Virus record (IMG/VR): IMGVR_UViG_3300028379_000400
Span: 64,001 to 112,428 of that record
DNA length: 48,428 nt
Origin: a virus
Lineage: Duplodnaviria > Heunggongvirae > Uroviricota > Caudoviricetes
Reading direction: 5' to 3' (one strand)
The notes beneath the pieces were generated by a model. It made no database searches, had not been told where the DNA came from, and was given only the letters and a program-made list of their open reading frames with translations. The position numbers and the translations under genes are program-made. Of the stretch, positions 3,353 to 12,480 are shown in pieces. Position 1 is the first letter of the stretch, and each line of letters begins with the position of its first letter.

Positions 3353-4482
3353 CCGAGCAGAAGTCGGGCGCAGAGCCGGCGCTATACGCGGCGCAAGAAA
3401 CGCTTGATCGAGTCCGTCGATACGGAACGGTTTGGCGTGGGCACCTGACACACAAGTCAGGCGAAGTGGCCCTGTACCTCAAACCCTTACCGCCTGAGCC
3501 TACTGCTGAGGTCTTACTCAATCTTGAGGAAGCCATTCTCGCTTGCCGCACGCTCACCGACCTTCGTTCAACGCAGATTACCATTCAGCGCATGAGAGGT
3601 GCGGCCGACGCCTCCCCACCCTTATCCCCGGCGGAGGAGGTGGTAGAGAGCCGGGTATCCGAAATCGCTCTTATCATCGATCCTCACGCGTTCGCTCCCA
3701 TTGCGCCCGACATGGAGCCGCCGTTTGACGACATGGTTCGGCAGGATCGCGAACTTGCACTGAGCAAGGCTCGTCGCATTGCCCCCCTCTGCTCAACCAG
3801 TGCGGAAGATGGCAAGCTCGCCGAACTTGAAGCCGAGGTCACCAAGCTTAAGCGCGTGGCCACAGACCGCCGCTACATGCTCGATGCGTATCGGTCGATG
3901 CTTGGCGAAACCGGGCTCAAGGTCGCCAAGATGTGGGACGAGAAAGGCGTAATACGCACGCATTTCGATTGGGCTTCCGGTGCGCACCGCATGACCGGCG
4001 AGGAGCGGGCACAATTCATTCTGGGTCTCGAAAACCTTCCGTCAACGCAGATCACTAGCGATGCTGATTTCGGCCCGATGACCGGATTTCTGGCCACGCT
4101 TGATGATGAGCAAAAAGAGGCCGCCCTATCGTTCGAGGGCCCTGACCTTCTTGGCGATCCATCCAAACTCGCCGTAGCCCGGCATGCATGCGCCGCCACC
4201 GGGCCATGCTCGGATAATGGTGACGGTTGCTCCTGCACAGACAGCGAGCTATCCGGCGCAGCCGACCGGGCCAGCAATGCCGGTGGTTATGTGCCGGCGC
4301 AGACTGATTCCGGCGCCATCGACGTTGCCATTCGCGTCGAGCGTGCCGCGATTGAGGCAGAGGCGCGGCGGTATGCTGGCTTCTACACCCCACATTCCGA
4401 TGGCTTCAACACGTTCGTGATTTTTGCCGATTGGGTTGCGGGGCGCTTCAAGCAGGAGCCGCCAGGTGGTCTGCAAGGCTGA
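3349..4482 (+). CDS. Mosaic phage accessory protein (multi-module, coiled-coil centre)
   Basis: ATGA overlap at 3349-3352; long ORF with a KLAELEAEVTKLKR coiled coil. Confidence 0.6.
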   Translation: MTEQKSGAEPALYAAQETLDRVRRYGTVWRGHLTHKSGEVALYLKPLPPEPTAEVLLNLEEAILACRTLTDLRSTQITIQRMRGAADASPPLSPAEEVVESRVSEIALIIDPHAFAPIAPDMEPPFDDMVRQDRELALSKARRIAPLCSTSAEDGKLAELEAEVTKLKRVATDRRYMLDAYRSMLGETGLKVAKMWDEKGVIRTHFDWASGAHRMTGEERAQFILGLENLPSTQITSDADFGPMTGFLATLDDEQKEAALSFEGPDLLGDPSKLAVARHACAATGPCSDNGDGCSCTDSELSGAADRASNAGGYVPAQTDSGAIDVAIRVERAAIEAEARRYAGFYTPHSDGFNTFVIFADWVAGRFKQEPPGGLQG

Positions 4483-5117: not shown

Positions 5118-5400
5118 GCGCGTTGAGGCGGCGATCGTGACAGCGCTCGACGCGGCCGACATCGACGGCAAAGGCTACGCCCACATCGAGCGCAATGGCG
5201 AGTTTGTGAGGATCGACGGGAACTTCAGGACAGCCGACGTCGCCCGGGCGGCGATCCTGGCGATGCGCGGCCCGACGGAAGAAATGGCCGAGGCGGGAAA
5301 GACGGCTCAAGATGCAGAGGAGGGCGATCAGGCCACCGTCGAAGGAGTCTCCGCAGCATTTACAGCCATGATCGACAAGGCCGTCTCCGAGAAGCCATGA
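5101..5400 (+). CDS. Phage hypothetical protein with ARAAIxAMRxPTEEM module
   Basis: GAGGGAGG RBS; recurrent phage helical module VARAAILAMRGPTEEMAEAG...AMIDKA. Confidence 0.65.
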   Translation: MSTMIERVEAAIVTALDAADIDGKGYAHIERNGEFVRIDGNFRTADVARAAILAMRGPTEEMAEAGKTAQDAEEGDQATVEGVSAAFTAMIDKAVSEKP

Positions 5401-5597
5401 CGGTCGTCCTGATCACCGGAGGCCGTACCTATTTCAACGAAAACCGCGTCTATCAGGTGCTGGACGCTGCGGTAGAGCGCCTTGGCCTGACTTCGATCAT
5501 CCACGGTGACGCCGACGGCGACGTCGGCACTCGCGACATGGTGCGAAGGGCCAAAAAAGCGGGTTTGAGGGTCATTTTCATCGATTGGGATGGCTAA
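5397..5597 (+). pseudogene. SLOG-superfamily (DUF2493/YspA-like) gene with an apparent internal in-frame deletion
   Basis: N-terminal VLITGGRTY...IIHGDADG is joined directly to C-terminal GTRDMVRRAKKAGLRV; the usual middle part (ADWxxxGKxAGxxRN...AFPGG) is missing; only 66 aa. Confidence 0.55.
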
Positions 5598-5709
5598 AAC
5601 CCCCAAAATGCGAGTTTTCGGTTGAAAGTGCCTGAAAACGCTCATAAATCGCCGATTTGCGCCAAAAACGCCAAAAACGGCCGATTTTCGGTGATTTTCG
5701 GTCAAAAAA
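5596..5709. other. Block of 12 phased A/T tracts (about 10 bp period), predicted intrinsically bent DNA
   Basis: A/T runs start at 5596, 5605, 5615, 5625, 5635, 5646, 5655, 5664, 5673, 5684, 5694 and 5704. Confidence 0.8.
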
Positions 5710-5916
5710 CGTCGCTAATACAGATAACATAGCAGCCGAACTTGACTCAAAACATGAGGACTTTCGGTGGTGGTCTCAGATGGCCTTACTACGTCCACGC
5801 TCGTTCGTGGACGTCCGGAGCGTGCAAAAAAAGTTGGTCGCGCGGAAATACAGAGCGGTCGCTGATTACCGACACACCAGATGAAGCGTATTGGGGCAGG
5901 GCGGTCCTACCACCCC

Positions 5917-5945
5917 TTGCGCATGAGGACTGTGCGAGTCATATA
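5917..5945 (+). promoter_or_regulatory. Putative sigma70 promoter for the tRNA array (TTGCGC-N17-CATATA)
   Basis: Resembles the rhizobial CTTGAC-N17-CTATAT consensus; lies about 100 nt upstream of the first tRNA. Confidence 0.45.
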
Positions 5946-6049
5946 GCCACCAGAAGTTCAAAAAGGGTCCAGAGCGGAATCGCCGCCGGGCCAAATCCTC
6001 TTCGGAAGCCGCCGCCATGTCATCCGACAGTTATCGATCATCGCAAATC

Positions 6050-6137
6050 GGAAGCGTGGCAGAGTGGCTTATTGCGCCTGGTTGCTAACCAGGTAGGTCT
6101 CCGGGCCTCGGGAGTTCGAATCCCCCCGCTTCCTCCA
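6050..6137 (+). tRNA. tRNA-Ser(GCT)
   Basis: GGAAGCG/CGCTTCC acceptor, CCTGG-TTGCTAA-CCAGG anticodon arm, long variable arm, TTCGAAT T loop, encoded CCA; U73. Confidence 0.93.
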
Positions 6138-6140
6138 TAC

Positions 6141-6230
6141 GGAGAGGTGGCAGAGCCTGGTTTATTGCAGCGGCTTCGAAACCCGTCGGATCGAAAGGTC
6201 CCGTGAGTTCAAATCTCACCCTCTCCGCCA
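6141..6230 (+). tRNA. tRNA-Ser(CGA)
   Basis: GGAGAGG/CCTCTCC acceptor, G73, long variable arm GGATC-GAAA-GGTCC, loop TTCGAAA; C31:C39 mismatch. Confidence 0.92.
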
Positions 6231-6240
6231 CACCCCTTTC

Positions 6241-6324
6241 GGGCCGGCTGGGCATGGGTGAGCCCAAGGCGCTGTAAACGCCCCGTGTTAAGCTGAGGTG
6301 GTTCAAATCCATCCCGGCCCACCA
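6241..6324 (+). tRNA. tRNA-Tyr(GTA)
   Basis: GGGCCGG/CCGGCCC acceptor, A73, GGCG-CTGTAAA-CGCC, extended variable region, CCA; C8 and an A27:C43 mismatch. Confidence 0.88.
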
Positions 6325-6390
6325 ATATCGAGGACTGTCGTGACCGACGAAAGCTTCACCTTACGACTTACGCGATTGCTGCTCAGCAGT

Positions 6391-6466
6391 GCGCGCGTAG
6401 GCAAGCGGTAAAGTCGGCGGGCTCAAACCCCGTTCTTCGTCAGTTCGAATCTGACCGCGCGCACCA
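6391..6466 (+). tRNA. tRNA-Leu(CAA) with a short (5-nt) variable loop
   Basis: GCGCGCG/CGCGCGC acceptor, A73, GCGGG-CTCAAAC-CCCGT, variable loop TCTTC, GTCAG-TTCGAAT-CTGAC; 76 nt. Confidence 0.85.
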
Positions 6467-6469
6467 TTT

Positions 6470-6545
6470 GCCCGATTGGCGGAATGGCAGACGCAGGCGT
6501 CTCAGAAACGTAAAGCTCCCGGTTCGAGTCCGGGATCGGGCACCA
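6470..6545 (+). tRNA. tRNA-Leu(CAG) with a short (5-nt) variable loop
   Basis: GCCCGAT/ATCGGGC acceptor, A73, Leu-type D arm GCGGAATGGCAGACGC, loop CTCAGAA, variable loop AAGCT; 76 nt. Confidence 0.87.
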
Positions 6546-6646
6546 CCCCCCAAGGAATTCTAGCATGATCGCTCTCCGCGCGCAGTGGCAACGCCAACAG
6601 ATCACCGCCGCGTAGTAGAGCATCCCCGCTCGGCTACACGGCGTCT

Positions 6647-6721
6647 GCCGGTGTAGCTCAGTGGTAGAGCATGGGTCTCCAAAACCCAGTGTCTTCGGTT
6701 CGATCCCGAACGCCGGCGCCA
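6647..6721 (+). tRNA. tRNA-Trp(CCA)
   Basis: Canonical cloverleaf, TGGGT-CTCCAAA-ACCCA, G73, CCA. Confidence 0.95.
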
Positions 6722-6722
6722 T

Positions 6723-6797
6723 TCCCTCGTGGTGCAACGGTAGCATTCCGGGCCCTGACCCCGGCGATACAGGTTCGAATCCAAGTCGAGGGAACCA
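6723..6797 (+). tRNA. tRNA-Gln(CTG), atypical (C33, distorted T stem, A73)
   Basis: TCCCTCG/CGAGGGA acceptor, CCGGG-CCCTGAC-CCCGG, T stem ACAGG/CCAAGT with a mismatch plus bulge. Confidence 0.75.
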
Positions 6798-6800
6798 ATT

Positions 6801-7232
6801 TTGGCCGATGTGACCTGCAAGGCATGTTCACGCTGCGGCCGAGTTAAACCACTAGAGGAGTTTCGTCGGTGCAGTGCGCACGGCGACGGCCGTACCTCTG
6901 AATGCAAGGCCTGTTTTAGCGCCCGAGAGGCGGAATATTACCGCTCGACGCCTAACAGGCGCGAGGCAATCAAGAATCGCCGGCAAGCGGTTCGAGCTAC
7001 GGCCAAGCAGGTAGTGCGAGCGTATTTGCTCCTGCACCCGTGCGTTGATTGTGGCGAAACCGACTTCGAAGTGCTGGAATTTGATCACCGAGACCCGTCG
7101 TCCAAGGAAAGCGACGTCTCGAAGTTGCTCACATTCTCCGTCGAGAAAGTCATAGCGGAAATCGCAAAATGCGACGTTCGCTGCGCCAATTGCCACAGAC
7201 GCAAAACGCGTAGGCAGTTCGGCTGGGTTTGA
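6801..7232 (+). CDS. HNH endonuclease with N-terminal zinc finger (putative homing endonuclease)
   Basis: CSRC...CKAC zinc finger; CVDCGETDFEVLEFDHRDP...KCDVRCANCHRRKT HNH core; TTG start 3 nt after tRNA-Gln. Confidence 0.85.
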   Translation: MADVTCKACSRCGRVKPLEEFRRCSAHGDGRTSECKACFSAREAEYYRSTPNRREAIKNRRQAVRATAKQVVRAYLLLHPCVDCGETDFEVLEFDHRDPSSKESDVSKLLTFSVEKVIAEIAKCDVRCANCHRRKTRRQFGWV

Positions 7233-7243
7233 GGAGTTTTCTG

Positions 7244-7477
7244 ATGAGCGCAGCGCTACCGCGACCATCTTCCCTGCGTGTGGGGAAGTCTGGTCATCCT
7301 GCCGCACTCGGAATGCGGAGTATCGCGGGTTCGAATCCCGCCACGCAGACCATTTTTGAACCAATGCACATGGCGCCTGCAGATGCCGACTTTATCGGCA
7401 TGCGCAACCGCCTCGAGGCCGATATGTACCGCGTATTCGGCGTGCCGACACCCATGCTGCGAACCCCGACACGGTAG
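7244..7477 (+). CDS. Small ORF running in frame through tRNA-Pro; portal-like C-terminal motif (alternative start at 7364)
   Basis: GAGGAG RBS at 7231-7236; C-terminus DADFIGMRNRLEADMYRVFGVPTPML. Confidence 0.4.
   Translation: MSAALPRPSSLRVGKSGHPAALGMRSIAGSNPATQTIFEPMHMAPADADFIGMRNRLEADMYRVFGVPTPMLRTPTR
7274..7352 (+). tRNA. tRNA-Pro(CGG)
   Basis: CTGCGTG/CACGCAG acceptor, A73, CCGCA-CTCGGAA-TGCGG, GCGGG-TTCGAAT-CCCGC, CCA. Confidence 0.92.
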
Positions 7478-7483
7478 GCATTC

Positions 7484-7559
7484 GCCGCCGTAGCTCAGTT
7501 GGAAGAGCGCCGTCTTCGTAATTCGGATGCCAGGGGTTCGATTCCTCTCGGCGGCACCA
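7484..7559 (+). tRNA. tRNA-Thr(CGT) with a weakened anticodon stem
   Basis: GCCGCCG/CGGCGGC acceptor, loop TTCGTAA; U30:U40 and C31:U39 mismatches. Confidence 0.88.
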
Positions 7560-7645
7560 AAGAATACCCAGAGGCGGCCGTCACGTACGCGCCGCCGGCG
7601 ACCGGGAAGTGTAGTGGCGACGCCCGCTGTCCCGGTCGCTCGTAT

Positions 7646-7723
7646 TGCGGGCAGGCGAGCAAGGTGCACGCGGCGGCCTGTTAAGCCGAGTTTAGGCTGG
7701 TTCGATCCCAGCTCCCGCAGCCA
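7646..7723 (+). tRNA. tRNA-Asn(GTT), atypical (A8, C7:U66, G27:A43)
   Basis: TGCGGGC/TCCCGCA acceptor, G73, CGGC-CTGTTAA-GCCG, GCTGG-TTCGATC-CCAGC, CCA. Confidence 0.82.
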
Positions 7724-7739
7724 TTTTCAGAGGCAATGC

Positions 7740-8045
7740 ATGTCTCAATCTGGCCGTACAACCGCGATGATCCGCGCGTTGCCAGATGCCGGCGCTATTA
7801 TCGTGGTGCCGAGCAAGACCAGCGTCCAGCCGATCAGCGATATGATCCTCGAGCTGCGCGGTCCGGACTTCGACAAGCGCTGTGATGTCGTCGCGGTCAC
7901 CGACCATGACACGGCTCAACAGCTTCTCGGCGCCAAGCGGTGGATCGCCTTCGATCACACCTTTCGCGTCATGACACCGCGGGCATTGGCGGATGAGGTC
8001 TACGCATTGGCGCGGATCTCCAATTACCAGTTCCCGCTCCAGTAA
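7740..8045 (+). CDS. Small protein with a degenerate P-loop-like N-terminus (SQSGRTTAMI)
   Basis: GAGG RBS; fills the spacer between tRNA-Asn and tRNA-Ala exactly. Confidence 0.55.
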   Translation: MSQSGRTTAMIRALPDAGAIIVVPSKTSVQPISDMILELRGPDFDKRCDVVAVTDHDTAQQLLGAKRWIAFDHTFRVMTPRALADEVYALARISNYQFPLQ

Positions 8046-8122
8046 GGGCTCATAGCTCAGTTTGGGAGAGCACCCGCCCTGCAAGCGGGATGTCGTCGGT
8101 TCGATGCCGGCTGGGTCCACCA
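8046..8122 (+). tRNA. tRNA-Ala(TGC) with C33
   Basis: G3:U70 alanine identity pair, A73, CCCGC-CCTGCAA-GCGGG, CCA. Confidence 0.9.
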
Positions 8123-8136
8123 TTTTCGGAGGCGTT

Positions 8137-8388
8137 ATGCAGCGTCGCAACTTCATTGGCGGTGTCGCCGGCGTAGCCGCGGCCGCCTCAATCACCAAAG
8201 CGGTAGCTGAGACTGCGCCCGCATCGGCTGACATGCTCCGCATCCGCATGTCAGGACCGCAGATGGTCATTGCCGACAGCCAGGGCCGGACGGTGACCGA
8301 TATCAGCAACGGCAAGCTGCGCTTTGTGTCGCCTGAGCGCGGTTTCGTGCACGGCTTTCCAGAAGTCCGCGTTCTCGAGCGCGGATAG
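8137..8388 (+). CDS. Small protein with a twin-arginine (Tat) signal peptide
   Basis: GGAGG RBS; MQRRNFIGGVAGVAAAASITKAVA|E gives RRxF, an h-region and an AxA site. Confidence 0.65.
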   Translation: MQRRNFIGGVAGVAAAASITKAVAETAPASADMLRIRMSGPQMVIADSQGRTVTDISNGKLRFVSPERGFVHGFPEVRVLERG

Positions 8389-8389
8389 C

Positions 8390-8464
8390 GTGCCGGGAGC
8401 CAGGTGGGACGGCGGCGGATTGCAAACCCGCAAGGAGCGAGTTCGATTCTCGCCCAGCACTCCA
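8390..8464 (+). tRNA. tRNA-Cys(GCA), atypical (G8, C5:A68, A31:C39)
   Basis: U73 cysteine discriminator, loop TTGCAAA, GCGAG-TTCGATT-CTCGC, CCA. Confidence 0.85.
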
Positions 8465-8469
8465 GTTTC

Positions 8470-8539
8470 GCGGCCTCGTTGGGCGGATACAGGCCCACCA
8501 AGCCAAGTGTCGACGGTTCAACTCCGTTAGGCCGCTCCA
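8470..8539 (+). tRNA. tRNA-Gly-like RNA, anticodon ACC, truncated D arm (70 nt)
   Basis: Perfect GCGGCCT/AGGCCGC acceptor with C2:G71 and U73, intact T arm and CCA; only 3 bp of anticodon stem (GGC/GCC) around loop CCACCAA; the segment between acceptor and anticodon arm is about 6 nt short. Confidence 0.7.
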
Positions 8540-8589
8540 AATCAGCGTCGGCCGGCCTCTGCTTGCAAGCTCCGGCGCTTAGTCACTGA

Positions 8590-8666
8590 TGCGGGATAGA
8601 GCAGCCCGGTAGCTCGTCTGGTTCATACCCAGAAGGTCGGCGGTTCGAATCCGCCTCCCGCTACCA
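8590..8666 (+). tRNA. Initiator-type tRNA-fMet(CAT)
   Basis: U1:U72 mismatch, A11:U24 pair, fMet-type D arm GAGCAGCCCGGTAGCTCG; anticodon stem TCTGG/CCAGA. Confidence 0.88.
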
Positions 8667-8670
8667 GTGA

Positions 8671-8746
8671 TGACGCTTAGCTCAGTCGGTAGAGCGATCG
8701 GCTGATAACCGATAGGCCCCACGTTCGAGCCGTGGAGCGTCAACCA
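8671..8746 (+). tRNA. tRNA-Ile(GAT)
   Basis: TGACGCT/AGCGTCA acceptor, ATCGG-CTGATAA-CCGAT, CCACG-TTCGAGC-CGTGG, A73, CCA. Confidence 0.93.
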
Positions 8747-9181: not shown

Positions 9182-9274
9182 CCGCCTCCTTTCCGCGACC
9201 CCGGCCGCGGTGATGAGACTTAACGCGCCGATCGCTCGGCCTCTGCCGGTTCAAGTTGAACGAAGGAGGCCTTG

Positions 9275-9682
9275 ATGGCCGATGTGACTCAGACGGCGGC
9301 GAACGTCATCGCCGGCGTTGATGCCGTCATTGACGATGGCTACTGCGGCGAGACCCTTGTCCAGGGCAATGTCGTCTATCAGGACGCCACGACCAAGCAG
9401 TGGAAGAAGGGCGATGCCAATGGCGCCGCTGCGCTGCAGGTCGCCAAGGGCATTGCGCTGACCGGCGGTGCTGTGAACCAGCCCTGTCGGATCGCGCGCA
9501 GCGGCACGATCAACGTCGGCGGCACGCTCGTTCCGGGCACCACGTATTGCCTCTCGGCGACAGCCGGCGGCATTTGCCCGCAGGCCGATCTCGTCACCGG
9601 TTGCGCGGTGGCGATCCTTGGCGTCGCCAAGTCAGCATCCCTGCTGGTGCTGAATATCCAGAATCCGGGCGTCGTCCTCTAG
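9275..9682 (+). CDS. Putative capsid decoration/cement protein (DUF2190-like beta fold)
   Basis: AAGGAGG RBS; GETLVQGNVVY...ADA...AKGIALTGG...G pattern of phage cement proteins. Confidence 0.55.
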   Translation: MADVTQTAANVIAGVDAVIDDGYCGETLVQGNVVYQDATTKQWKKGDANGAAALQVAKGIALTGGAVNQPCRIARSGTINVGGTLVPGTTYCLSATAGGICPQADLVTGCAVAILGVAKSASLLVLNIQNPGVVL

Positions 9683-10770: not shown

Positions 10771-12480
10771 TTGTCATCGACATATCCGTCGTGGATCTTC
10801 GACGACAGCCCTATTGATGACCCGCTAGGCGAAGGCCAGCGCGCGGTCGATTGGTTCAATTTCCTGCGCCACCCGGCGTCGACGCATCCCGAGAAGCGGC
10901 TGGGTCTCCCGCACTTCTGGGAGCGGATCATTCGGCGCACCTACGGGCCGCGCATGCAGAATGGCCGCCGCAAGGTGCGTCAGGTCTTCATCCTGATGCC
11001 GCGTGGCGCCCGCAAGACGACTTACATCGGCGGCGCGATCGGTCTCTACCATACGATCGGCCGCCCAAAACGTCCTAACGGTTCTGTGCTTCTCGGCGCA
11101 GGTTCCGCCGATCAGGCCGAATTGGCGCTCAATGAAGCCATCGGCATGGTCAAGGCCACGCCGGGGCTGATTTATCCCGACGGCTCCAAGCCGGACAAGG
11201 TCCGCATCCGCGGCGATTATCTGCAACATATCGAGGCCGGCACCAAGCTCGAGGTGATGTCGGCCGACGGCGACAACTCGCACGGCAAGACGCCGTCGGT
11301 ATCGATCTTCGACGAGCTGCACGTCTACAAAAACCGCAAGCTCTGGCGCGCCATGCGTACCGGCCTGCTGAAGATCCCGGATGGCTTGTCGATCGTCACG
11401 ACGACAGCGGGCCGCGGCCAATCGGGCCTGGCATGGGACGAATATCAATACGCTCGAAAGGTGGCGCTTGGCGAAGTCGTCAACGACTCGTACCTCCCGG
11501 TCCTTTTTGAACCCCCGGCGGGCGCCGATTGGGAAGATCCCCATGTCTGGGAACTCGTCAACCCCGGTATGGCCGAAGGATTCCCAGACGTCGAAGCGTT
11601 CGCGCTCGAGGCGCAAACGGTCCGCGACAAGCCAGCCGATCGAGACGACTTCAAGCAATACAACCTGAATTTCTGGCTCGCGCAGTCCCTGTCGCCTTTC
11701 GTCGACATGGAAATCTACGACGAGGGCAAAGAGGCGGTTGACCTCGAGTCGCACGAGACATTCCGCGACCCCTGCTGGGTTGCCATCGACCTTGGCCTCA
11801 ATCAGGACCTTTGCGCCATCGTGGCGTGCTGGCCGGACGGGGAGGGCGGTTACGACGTCTGGGCATGGTTCTTCTGCCCCGAGGACAACCTCGAAAAGCG
11901 CGCCGACCTCGACAAGTTCAACTACCCGGAGTGGGCCAAGAAGGGCTTCATCACTCCAACGCCCGGCAATGTGACCGACTACACGAAGGTCCAGGAATTC
12001 CTTGAAGAGCTCAACGGACGATTCAACGTCCAAGAGTTCGCATTCGACCCCAAGCTCGCCAGTCAGATGATGACGCAGATGAGCGAGAAGGGCCTGCCGG
12101 TCTTCGGCATGCAGCAGGGTTGGATCACGATGGCGCCGGCCATCAAGGAGCTCGAGCGCGCCATCATCTCTCGGCGCCTCCATCACGGCGGCCAGCCGGT
12201 GCTTCGCTGGAACTTCGAGAACGTCAGCGTCAAGACGGACGAAGCCGGCAACATGACGTTTCACAAGGGCCGCAGCCGCGAGCGTATCGACGGCGCGCAG
12301 GCCACTGCCATGGCGGTCGGTCGGGCATTCCTCGGCGAGCTTCTTGAGAAGGCCCAGAAGTCGTTCTGGCAGGAGAAGGACGTCGATATCGACGACCTCC
12401 TCGAAGACTCGCCGGCGGAGGAGGGTGACGAACCGTCCGAGCTTGATGCCGAAATCCGCGCCATGCTGGAGGACGATTAA
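10771..12480 (+). CDS. terL: Terminase large subunit
   Basis: Walker A variant MPRGARKTT, Walker B IFDELH, TTAG coupling motif, nuclease AIDLG...D and RIDGAQA. Confidence 0.96.
   Translation: MSSTYPSWIFDDSPIDDPLGEGQRAVDWFNFLRHPASTHPEKRLGLPHFWERIIRRTYGPRMQNGRRKVRQVFILMPRGARKTTYIGGAIGLYHTIGRPKRPNGSVLLGAGSADQAELALNEAIGMVKATPGLIYPDGSKPDKVRIRGDYLQHIEAGTKLEVMSADGDNSHGKTPSVSIFDELHVYKNRKLWRAMRTGLLKIPDGLSIVTTTAGRGQSGLAWDEYQYARKVALGEVVNDSYLPVLFEPPAGADWEDPHVWELVNPGMAEGFPDVEAFALEAQTVRDKPADRDDFKQYNLNFWLAQSLSPFVDMEIYDEGKEAVDLESHETFRDPCWVAIDLGLNQDLCAIVACWPDGEGGYDVWAWFFCPEDNLEKRADLDKFNYPEWAKKGFITPTPGNVTDYTKVQEFLEELNGRFNVQEFAFDPKLASQMMTQMSEKGLPVFGMQQGWITMAPAIKELERAIISRRLHHGGQPVLRWNFENVSVKTDEAGNMTFHKGRSRERIDGAQATAMAVGRAFLGELLEKAQKSFWQEKDVDIDDLLEDSPAEEGDEPSELDAEIRAMLEDD

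Follow-up and report, generated by a model that had tools for sequence, protein, structure and literature searches.

The window analysed here (48,428 nt) is the last 48 kb of a 112,428-bp provirus record from IMG/VR (IMGVR_UViG_3300028379_000400), which is derived from metagenomes; the contig is present in the samples ERZ27251944 and SRR5451461. It encodes a tRNA array at positions 6050-8746, composed of 14 tRNA genes (about 11 robust and three weak) and one tRNA-like remnant. Ahead of each of the first three blocks of tRNAs there is a short open reading frame (ORF) rich in the amino acids carried by the tRNAs that follow it. We predict, with a probability of about one half, that the array is a phage-owned tRNA operon that would keep translation going when host tRNAs are limiting and would respond to demand through these leader ORFs. 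The array is a known kind of element, and the leader control layer is possibly undescribed.

The element is a large integrated phage, temperate and siphovirus-like, of at least 112 kb. Profile searches found a single tyrosine integrase, at the right end of the record. The host is probably a soil-type alphaproteobacterium of the Hyphomicrobiales. Relatives of the terminase (about 50% identity) are prophages of Mesorhizobium, Bosea, Bradyrhizobium, Xanthobacter, and other alphaproteobacteria, mostly Hyphomicrobiales. Five Hyphomicrobiales genomes serve as proxy hosts throughout.

The 14 tRNA genes were predicted with ARAGORN (default settings) and are all on the + strand; no further tRNAs were found by ARAGORN in the rest of the record. 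Lowering the ARAGORN threshold to 80%, in search of extra pseudo-tRNAs in the gaps, produced only overlapping or antisense noise. The gathering score of the Rfam tRNA model (29 bits) is reached by 12 of the 14 genes (67.3 to 30.1 bits). Below threshold are the genes for tRNA-Asn (24.5 bits) and tRNA-Tyr, for which the best match is tRNA-Sec at 31.8 bits. A preliminary description of this DNA, made from the sequence alone, had listed 15 genes; ARAGORN returns 14 of them with the same coordinates and anticodons, and the fifteenth, “Gly-ACC”, is only a tRNA-like remnant. The elements, all on the + strand, are the following.

6050-6137 (+): tRNA-Ser(GCT), 88 nt, long variable arm, atypical U73 (Rfam 52.4 bits)
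6141-6230 (+): tRNA-Ser(CGA), 90 nt, C.C mismatch at 31:39 (44.6 bits)
6241-6324 (+): tRNA-Tyr(GTA), 84 nt, 13-nt unpaired variable region, weak (below threshold)
6391-6466 (+): tRNA-Leu(CAA), 76 nt, without a long variable arm (57.7 bits)
6470-6545 (+): tRNA-Leu(CAG), 76 nt, without a long variable arm, Leu-type D arm and A73 kept (54.3 bits)
6647-6721 (+): tRNA-Trp(CCA), canonical, anticodon loop of host type (66.6 bits)
6723-6797 (+): tRNA-Gln(CTG), weak, C33, U1:A72 kept (30.1 bits)
7274-7352 (+): tRNA-Pro(CGG), 79 nt, C1:G72, A73, A37 where the host type has G37 (57.9 bits)
7484-7559 (+): tRNA-Thr(CGT), the two lowest anticodon-stem pairs mismatched (58.5 bits)
7646-7723 (+): tRNA-Asn(GTT), 78 nt, weak, U1:A72 and G73 as in the host type (below threshold)
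8046-8122 (+): tRNA-Ala(TGC), G3:U70 and A73 intact, C32 C33 where the host type has U32 U33 (54.4 bits)
8390-8464 (+): tRNA-Cys(GCA), U73, loop of host type, mismatches at 5:68 and 31:39 (43.9 bits)
8470-8539 (+): tRNA-like remnant, “Gly-ACC” (relaxed ARAGORN threshold only; no Rfam match on the + strand)
8590-8666 (+): initiator-type tRNA-Met(CAT), U1.U72 mismatch, A11:U24, loop UUCAUAC where the host has CUCAUAA (61.6 bits)
8671-8746 (+): tRNA-Ile(GAT), canonical (67.3 bits)

All 15 elements have an encoded CCA at the 3′ end, as previously noted, and the short spacers are also real. In order, the spacers measure 3, 10, 66, 3, 101, 1, 476, 131, 86, 322, 267, 5, 50, and 4 nt, five of them in the range of 1-5 nt. 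The first seven tRNAs form three blocks: Ser-GCT/Ser-CGA/Tyr-GTA, Leu-CAA/Leu-CAG, and Trp-CCA/Gln-CTG. “Gly-ACC” retains an intact 7-bp acceptor stem, T arm, and CCA, but its anticodon stem has 3 bp, the D arm is residual, positions 33 and 34 are C and A, and the centroid fold does not form a cloverleaf. We therefore treat it as a remnant and not as a gene. The gene for tRNA-Gln is doubtful, with two of five T-stem pairs and a thermodynamic fold that is not a cloverleaf.

Directly upstream of the three blocks are three leader ORFs, each with a ribosome-binding site (RBS) or a sequence resembling one. None of them was part of the preliminary description, which likewise did not mention an HNH gene located within the array or an upstream RNA ligase gene (both described below).

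6017-6088 (+): leader A, MSSDSYRSSQIGSVAEWLIAPGC and stop, with RBS-like GGAAG 8 nt upstream; precedes Ser-GCT, Ser-CGA, and Tyr-GTA
6340-6411 (+): leader B, GTG start, TDESFTLRLTRLLLSSARVGKR and stop, with RBS GAGGA 5 nt upstream; precedes Leu-CAA and Leu-CAG
6565-6615 (+): leader C, MIALRAQWQRQQITAA and stop, with RBS AAGGA 8 nt upstream; precedes Trp-CCA and Gln-CTG
6598-6646 (+): long imperfect hairpin without a U tract, spanning the final codons of leader C up to the nucleotide that precedes tRNA-Trp (centroid fold of 6546-6650)

In leader A, Ser and Tyr make up six of eight consecutive residues; the ORF extends into tRNA-Ser(GCT), with its stop codon in the anticodon loop of that tRNA. 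Leader B has Leu at five of eight consecutive residues, written with five different Leu codons (including an adjacent TTG CTG), and enters tRNA-Leu(CAA). Leader C contains the run QWQRQQ (five of eight residues Trp or Gln) and stops 31 nt before tRNA-Trp. The enrichment in cognate residues is statistically supported: dinucleotide shuffles of the upstream regions gave p = 0.0013 (A), 0.0027 (B), and 0.0003 (C), and a matrix in which leader regions and amino acid sets are swapped is diagonal-dominant. All six frames of the record together contain 1548 short ORFs, of which six have such a window for the A set (0.39%), five for the B set (0.32%), and two for the C set (0.13%).

A gap of 5-6 nt separates leaders B and C from the tRNAs before them, which suggests that the blocks belong to one transcript and that each leader forms the 5′ leader of the pre-tRNA behind it. 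In predicted folds, codons of leaders A and B form hairpins with the 5′ side of the acceptor stem of the first tRNA, and the long hairpin of leader C ends at position -1 of tRNA-Trp. The leaders use nearly all codon families of their amino acids, which fits a sensor of how fast the amino acid is decoded in general better than a sensor of a single isoacceptor. The ORFs before tRNA-Pro (starting MSAALPRPSS) and tRNA-Thr (ending PTPMLRTPTR) are suggestive only, as their cognate enrichment is not significant.

The leaders resemble those of leader-peptide attenuators (trpL, hisL, leuL, ilv, and the trpL of Sinorhizobium; PMC7968998) in being short ORFs with an RBS and cognate codons directly before the genes that they would control. 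The Sinorhizobium case demonstrates that ribosome-dependent attenuation works in Rhizobiales (PMC7968998). Known attenuators control biosynthetic enzymes, whereas here the genes are tRNAs; moreover, two of the leaders enter the first tRNA of their block, and the blocks appear to share one polycistronic tRNA transcript instead of having their own promoters. Our literature search found no description of leader-peptide control of tRNA genes.

The tRNA genes with their features, the codon statistics, the leader ORFs with their enrichment, and the gene context come straight from the sequence; beyond these we infer transcription, charging, a link to nucleases, and regulation by the leaders as follows. 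Transcription would run rightward during lytic growth, from the non-coding stretch at about 5.7-6.0 kb.

5598-6016 (+): non-coding, A/T-richer stretch of 420 nt ahead of the array, with a terminator-like hairpin at 5680-5692

We place the array's own promoter in this stretch by inference only. No E. coli-type sigma-70 promoter was found ahead of the array, and that consensus is uninformative for an alphaproteobacterial phage. The stretch carries, at 5650-5710, a tandem CGCCAAAAA (two copies) and then GATTTTCGGT (two copies), a palindromic terminator-like element positioned where the upstream genes end, which may act as a terminator or as an operator. Host RNase P and 3′ processing would cut the transcript into phage-type tRNAs, which keep most aminoacylation identity elements, differ from host tRNAs in the body, and in half of the cases have an altered anticodon loop. 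These tRNAs would sustain translation when host tRNAs for the 12 amino acids run short, due to tRNA-cleaving defence or toxin nucleases or to host shut-off, and would not serve to correct a codon mismatch. By analogy with leader-peptide control, ribosomes slowing at leader codons would raise the yield of the tRNAs behind them.

The tRNAs themselves appear to be old phage-type tRNAs. In the five proxy-host genomes, no tRNA is more than 83% identical to any of them, and for several there is no significant match, which rules out recent capture of host tRNAs. The median Rfam score of the array is about 54 bits, compared to 59-73 bits for proxy-host tRNAs, and is similar to that of the tRNAs of Mesorhizobium phage Cp1R7A-A1 (MT188704.1; 131 kb, 26 tRNAs by ARAGORN). 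Most identity elements are retained: Ala has G3:U70 and A73, Cys has U73, Trp has G73, Pro has C1:G72 and A73, Gln and Asn have the U1:A72 also seen in hosts, both Leu tRNAs have A73, and the initiator type has the 1:72 mismatch and A11:U24. Both Leu tRNAs (6391-6545) are 76 nt in the phage and 85 nt in hosts. Short Leu-CAG is 79% identical to the short Leu-CAG of Cp1R7A-A1, with compensatory changes in the acceptor and T stems. The tRNAs are likely functional, given the retained identity elements and these compensatory stem changes.

Cp1R7A-A1 shares several unusual features with the array: a tandem of 76-77 nt Leu(CAA) and Leu(CAG) tRNAs without a long variable arm, adjoining tRNA-Trp; an initiator-type tRNA with the loop UUCAUAC; and C33 in one tRNA. 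The similarity is confined to the tRNAs (69-79%), and the genomes are otherwise unrelated except for one SPFH protein. Cp1R7A-A1 also differs in having its own GOLLD RNA in the array. That RNA (RF02032, 193.5 bits; L006:7263-7725) encloses a 72-nt “tRNA-Leu(CAG)”. The SPFH/Band-7 gene is just upstream of the Cp1R7A-A1 array, and its homologue in the present phage (G000:5635-6612) is 64 kb from the array. No further short, arm-less Leu tRNAs were found in viral or metagenome collections with the DNA patterns used.

The anticodon loops that differ from the proxy-host type are those of Leu-CAG (G37A, U38A), Pro (U32C, G37A), Leu-CAA (A38C), the initiator type (C32U, A38C), Gln (U33C), Ala (U32C, U33C), and Ser-CGA (U32 where the host has C). 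G37 is the site of the m1G37 modification, made by TrmD. With A37 in place of the host G37, tRNA-Pro(CGG) and tRNA-Leu(CAG) would be independent of this modification.

Several lines of evidence are consistent with replacement of host tRNAs lost to nucleases. The hypothesis that phage tRNAs counter depletion by nucleases is already published (van den Berg 2023, PMC10264068). Replacement was demonstrated experimentally for a T5-like tRNA-Tyr against retron-Eco7 (PMC11555353) and for T5 tRNA-Lys against PARIS (PMC11464382). The preliminary description read the array as a replacement kit of this kind and listed targets of VapC-type nucleases. That list is correct at the level of isoacceptors: the targets in Winther 2016 are Cys-GCA, Leu-CAG, Leu-GAG, Gln-CTG, Ser-TGA, Ser-CGA, and Trp-CCA (PMC5175351), and enteric VapCs target the initiator tRNA. 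The array contains six of these eight isoacceptors (p of about 0.009 in a hypergeometric test, calculated post hoc with lists from Mycobacterium and enterics). VapC11 cuts Leu-CAG at G37/U38; the proxy host has G37 U38 and the phage has A37 A38. The loop of the initiator-like tRNA is also altered at the known cleavage site, while the Trp and Cys loops are unaltered. The array includes a tRNA-Tyr, the isoacceptor that matches a retron-Eco7-type target.

The proxy-host genomes each contain between 1 and 22 PIN-domain genes, and the provirus contains no PIN domain. There is no PrrC- or PARIS-type family, as candidates for a prophage-encoded tRNA toxin, among the 25 commonest PADLOC families listed for the left 64 kb of the record. 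Compared to published replacement clusters (mycobacteriophage C1, T5-like phages), the array is alike in its clustered same-strand tRNAs, in the poor fit of codon compensation, in isoacceptors that overlap nuclease targets, and in several altered loops, with the Leu-CAG change located at the mapped VapC11 cleavage dinucleotide. It differs in belonging to a temperate alphaproteobacterial phage, in having no tRNA-Lys and half of its loops unchanged, and in being known from sequence.

The replacement reading gains circumstantial support from an RNA ligase gene, from repair cassettes in relatives, and from the matched leader ORFs. The ligase gene is located 9.5 kb upstream of the array (3.4-4.2 kb before the start of the window) and is the first gene of the rightward block that includes the array.

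Record 59768-60601, L120:2768-3601 (+): RNA-ligase-family gene (PF09414, 5.7e-13; phrog_548, 2.9e-27)

The protein has a weak likeness to the Deinococcus RNA ligase DRB0094 and has no match among PDB sequences. No homologues of kinase/phosphatase, RlaP, or RtcB were found in the record by BLAST. In the four closest relatives, with TerL proteins 59-72% identical to that of the phage, one to three tRNAs precede the terminase genes, and three of these relatives have RNA-repair genes beside the tRNAs.

L003:1962-4998: PNKP, RlaP, and T4-type RNA ligase 1 (Rnl1)
L004:1388-4232: Metallophos, RlaP, and HD_4
L005:1-580 and 3734-4267: RtcB and HD_4

Homologues of these repair genes are absent from 80 more distant prophage loci. 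RlaP and ligases of this type are linked to the repair of damaged tRNA (PMC12776372, PMC7824862). The cassettes beside tRNAs resemble phage systems that combine RNA repair with tRNAs (T4 Pnkp/Rnl1 against PrrC; RtcB/Rnl/RlaP of jumbo phages, Iyer 2021, PMC7824862; RlaP, PMC12776372), as does the presence of an RNA ligase in the same rightward block as the array. The phage differs from these systems in the distance between ligase and array and in lacking the other repair homologues. These findings indicate that the lineage invests in tRNA protection, which fits the replacement idea without proving it for the array, and this phage seems to rely more on replacement than on repair. Just downstream of the L003 cassette, in a phage-like contig, ARAGORN predicts a permuted transfer-messenger RNA (L003:5547-5858; tag DNDNHPLAVAV and stop).

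The size of the array appears to reflect a lineage-specific expansion. Reference genomes contain 80 related prophage loci with zero to four tRNAs within 10 kb of TerL, most of which look like host genes at the border. An initiator-type tRNA-Met is found upstream of the terminase genes in three of the four closest relatives (L002, L004, and L005), and it is the only tRNA type of the array that they keep. The preliminary view that an array this large is unusual thus agrees with the related loci, but it is too strong in general, since large tRNA sets are already recorded in temperate phages (PMC13015707) and tRNA sets are common in phages of this size (112 kb or more). Single-protein TerL scans of genome and viral collections yielded no relative that shares the array, and DNA patterns (exact or degenerate) from the short Leu-CAG and from tRNA-Trp had no match in viral or metagenome contigs.

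A number of observations weigh against a demand-responsive operon that replaces tRNAs lost to nucleases. The array has no tRNAs for Lys, Arg, His, Asp, Glu, Phe, or Val and no proper tRNA-Gly. Of the classic phage-defence targets, it lacks tRNA-Lys, the target of PrrC and PARIS, and tRNA-Arg. The colicin E5 set is half complete: the Tyr and Asn targets proposed in the preliminary description are present, and His and Asp are not. The data on nuclease targets come from other phyla, from work on Mycobacterium and enterics. The VapC overlap may result only from a common preference for C34 readers of frequent NNG codons at high GC. Six anticodon loops (Trp, Cys, Thr, Asn, Ile, and Ser-GCT) match the proxy-host type, and the eroded look of Gln, Asn, Tyr, and the Gly-like element fits relaxed constraint. 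The replacement kit proposed in the preliminary description is partly supported: we consider nuclease replacement plausible and circumstantial, with several of its predictions only half borne out.

The leaders also have points against them. Shuffle tests detected no significant leader for the six later blocks, and no matched leaders were seen in Cp1R7A-A1 or in the relative L004. Leaders and tRNAs correspond in their amino acids and in part only in their anticodons; leader codons such as TCA, TCC, TTA, CTT, CTC, and CAA are not read by the array. Duplex energies of leader and tRNA are not clearly better than for shuffled or mismatched pairs (p = 0.02, 0.135, 0.055). As these energies are unconvincing against shuffled leaders and non-cognate tRNAs, we do not claim a defined leader-to-tRNA RNA switch. 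None of the leaders is separated from its tRNA by a terminator hairpin with a U tract, and a classical attenuator is for this reason not present. Because the leaders lie directly before or run into the tRNAs and have no terminators, any action would be on tRNA folding, RNase P processing, or Rho access. We tentatively propose that the leaders are ribosome-speed sensors in a polycistronic pre-tRNA, which would deliver Ser/Tyr, Leu, and Trp/Gln tRNAs according to how slowly those amino acids are decoded; this is possible, and we lean against it. A leader switch could work through folding and RNase P, could work through Rho, or could be nonexistent.

Codon usage was compared using 137 phage genes (ORFs chosen across the record on the basis of GC content at third codon positions) and 63 proxy-host genes from 30 loci of the five genomes. 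Codon frequencies of phage and proxy host are closely correlated (r = 0.95). The mean log2(phage/host) is 0.06 for codons cognate to the array and 0.08 for others (p = 0.71). The array could decode 37.8% of phage codons and 38.0% of proxy-host codons. Rare-codon compensation, which the preliminary description had already argued against, is not supported. Its statement that mostly G/C-ending codons are read also agrees with our analysis: G or C occupies the third position in 13 of the 14 cognate codons, and relative synonymous codon usage in the phage exceeds 1 for all but TTG and GCA.

The array is located between early/middle genes and packaging/late genes. Upstream are phage ORFs (phrog_1843, phrog_2072, phrog_1735) in addition to the RNA ligase. 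Downstream are a small HNH gene, then TerS, TerL (10771-12480), portal, a ClpP-type protease, capsid, and tail genes, and phage genes are thus on both flanks. Relatives conserve the HNH-TerS-TerL block but not the region preceding it. The ORF that precedes the non-coding stretch and those within the array are listed here.

5397-5597: 66-aa ORF with a YAcAr SLOG domain (PF10686, 29.9 bits, barely above the cut-off), its stop directly before the non-coding stretch that begins at 5598
6801-7232 (+): HNH endonuclease gene (phrog_2255, E = 8e-35; no Pfam match at E 0.01 or better)
7244-7477 (+): ORF reading through tRNA-Pro, with a strong RBS (GAGGAG); this is the ORF that starts MSAALPRPSS
7740-8045 (+): 101-aa ORF that ends at the base before tRNA-Ala, with no family match
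8137-8388 (+): 83-aa ORF between the Ala and Cys tRNAs, with a twin-arginine-like start, MQRRNFIGG (PF10518 at 18.2 bits, below the cut-off; weak twin-arginine translocation matches)

The YAcAr SLOG domain family is linked to nucleotide/NAD conflict systems (PMC7824862). The HNH ORF and an ORF at 9272-9682 have a common 28-nt start region (6787-6814 and 9261-9288; 75% identity), and both begin with MADVT; they may share a translation-start cassette or be paralogues. The last 35 codons of the ORF at 7244-7477 (from the ATG at 7370) resemble an internal segment of a portal protein, a weak match (phrog_12, E = 7.6e-4). This fragment (7370-7477) ends with VPTPMLRTPTR and a stop, 6 nt ahead of tRNA-Thr. 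It has no similarity to the portal of the phage itself and is probably a recombination scar. A twin-arginine-like signal is unexpected within a tRNA array. The left 64 kb of the record contains replication and DNA-methylation genes. Two members match all three DNA polymerase III beta-clamp domains, and there are also several DNA methyltransferases, a GNAT acetyltransferase, and a phosphopantetheine-binding protein.

The array could instead be a constitutive translation booster for moderately common codons during late expression, with no link to defence and with leaders that are not regulatory. Its position just upstream of packaging and late genes suits this idea, and cognate codons are somewhat commoner than average in the phage (20.9 versus 15.1 per 1000, p = 0.011). 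Hosts of this kind usually have a single gene copy for each C34 tRNA that decodes an abundant NNG codon. tRNAs are also common in large phages generally (PMC7824862, PMC13015707). The near identity of phage and proxy-host codon use speaks against a booster, as does the choice of codons: the array covers three of the 14 commonest phage codons and misses the other 11, and the share of decodable codons is barely higher in late genes (0.384) than in early genes (0.371). A booster would also leave the RNA ligase, the repair cassettes of relatives, and the three matched leaders unexplained. We judge it somewhat unlikely.

The HNH endonuclease gene within the array and the portal-like fragment from another phage between Pro and Thr raise another explanation, that the tRNAs are selfish or hitch-hiking cassettes brought in by illegitimate recombination and HNH-driven mobility, which now decay in a resident prophage with little benefit. 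The erosion of Gln, Asn, Tyr, and the Gly-like element and the lack of conservation upstream of the HNH-TerS-TerL block would be expected from such a history. Decay is difficult to reconcile with eleven tRNAs that score 43.9-67.3 bits and retain identity elements, with CCA in all 15 elements, with the compensatory changes in Leu-CAG, with a range of Rfam scores like that of the isolated phage Cp1R7A-A1, and with intact phage protein genes, and we find this explanation improbable. Highly improbable is tRNA-dependent lysogeny, in which one tRNA of the array would replace a host tRNA gene broken by integration. The mechanism is documented in actinobacteriophages (PMC10865867), the provirus has its single tyrosine integrase at the right end, and many related prophages adjoin host tRNA genes. 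Yet it requires one tRNA and not fourteen, and so explains a single gene, and identity between array tRNAs and proxy-host tRNAs does not exceed 83%. The record stops short of any att site or host junction, at the start codon of the integrase.

Alone, the array is ordinary: phage tRNA arrays are common, and the replacement idea is published and partly proven in coliphages. Comparison adds support for a theme of tRNA protection in one alphaproteobacterial lineage, where sister phages have repair enzymes and this phage has a ligase and 14 tRNA genes. The array also contains natural tRNA variants of interest, namely the arm-less Leu tRNAs, the Pro and Leu(CAG) tRNAs with A37 for G37, and the Ala and Gln tRNAs with C33. 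The matched leaders suggest that the phage gauges the decoding of amino acids for which it supplies the tRNAs. If this is true, the supply of phage tRNAs would be regulated by demand, in a self-tuning resupply circuit, and fusions of the leaders to a reporter would give a simple read-out of the collapse of the host tRNA pool during infection.

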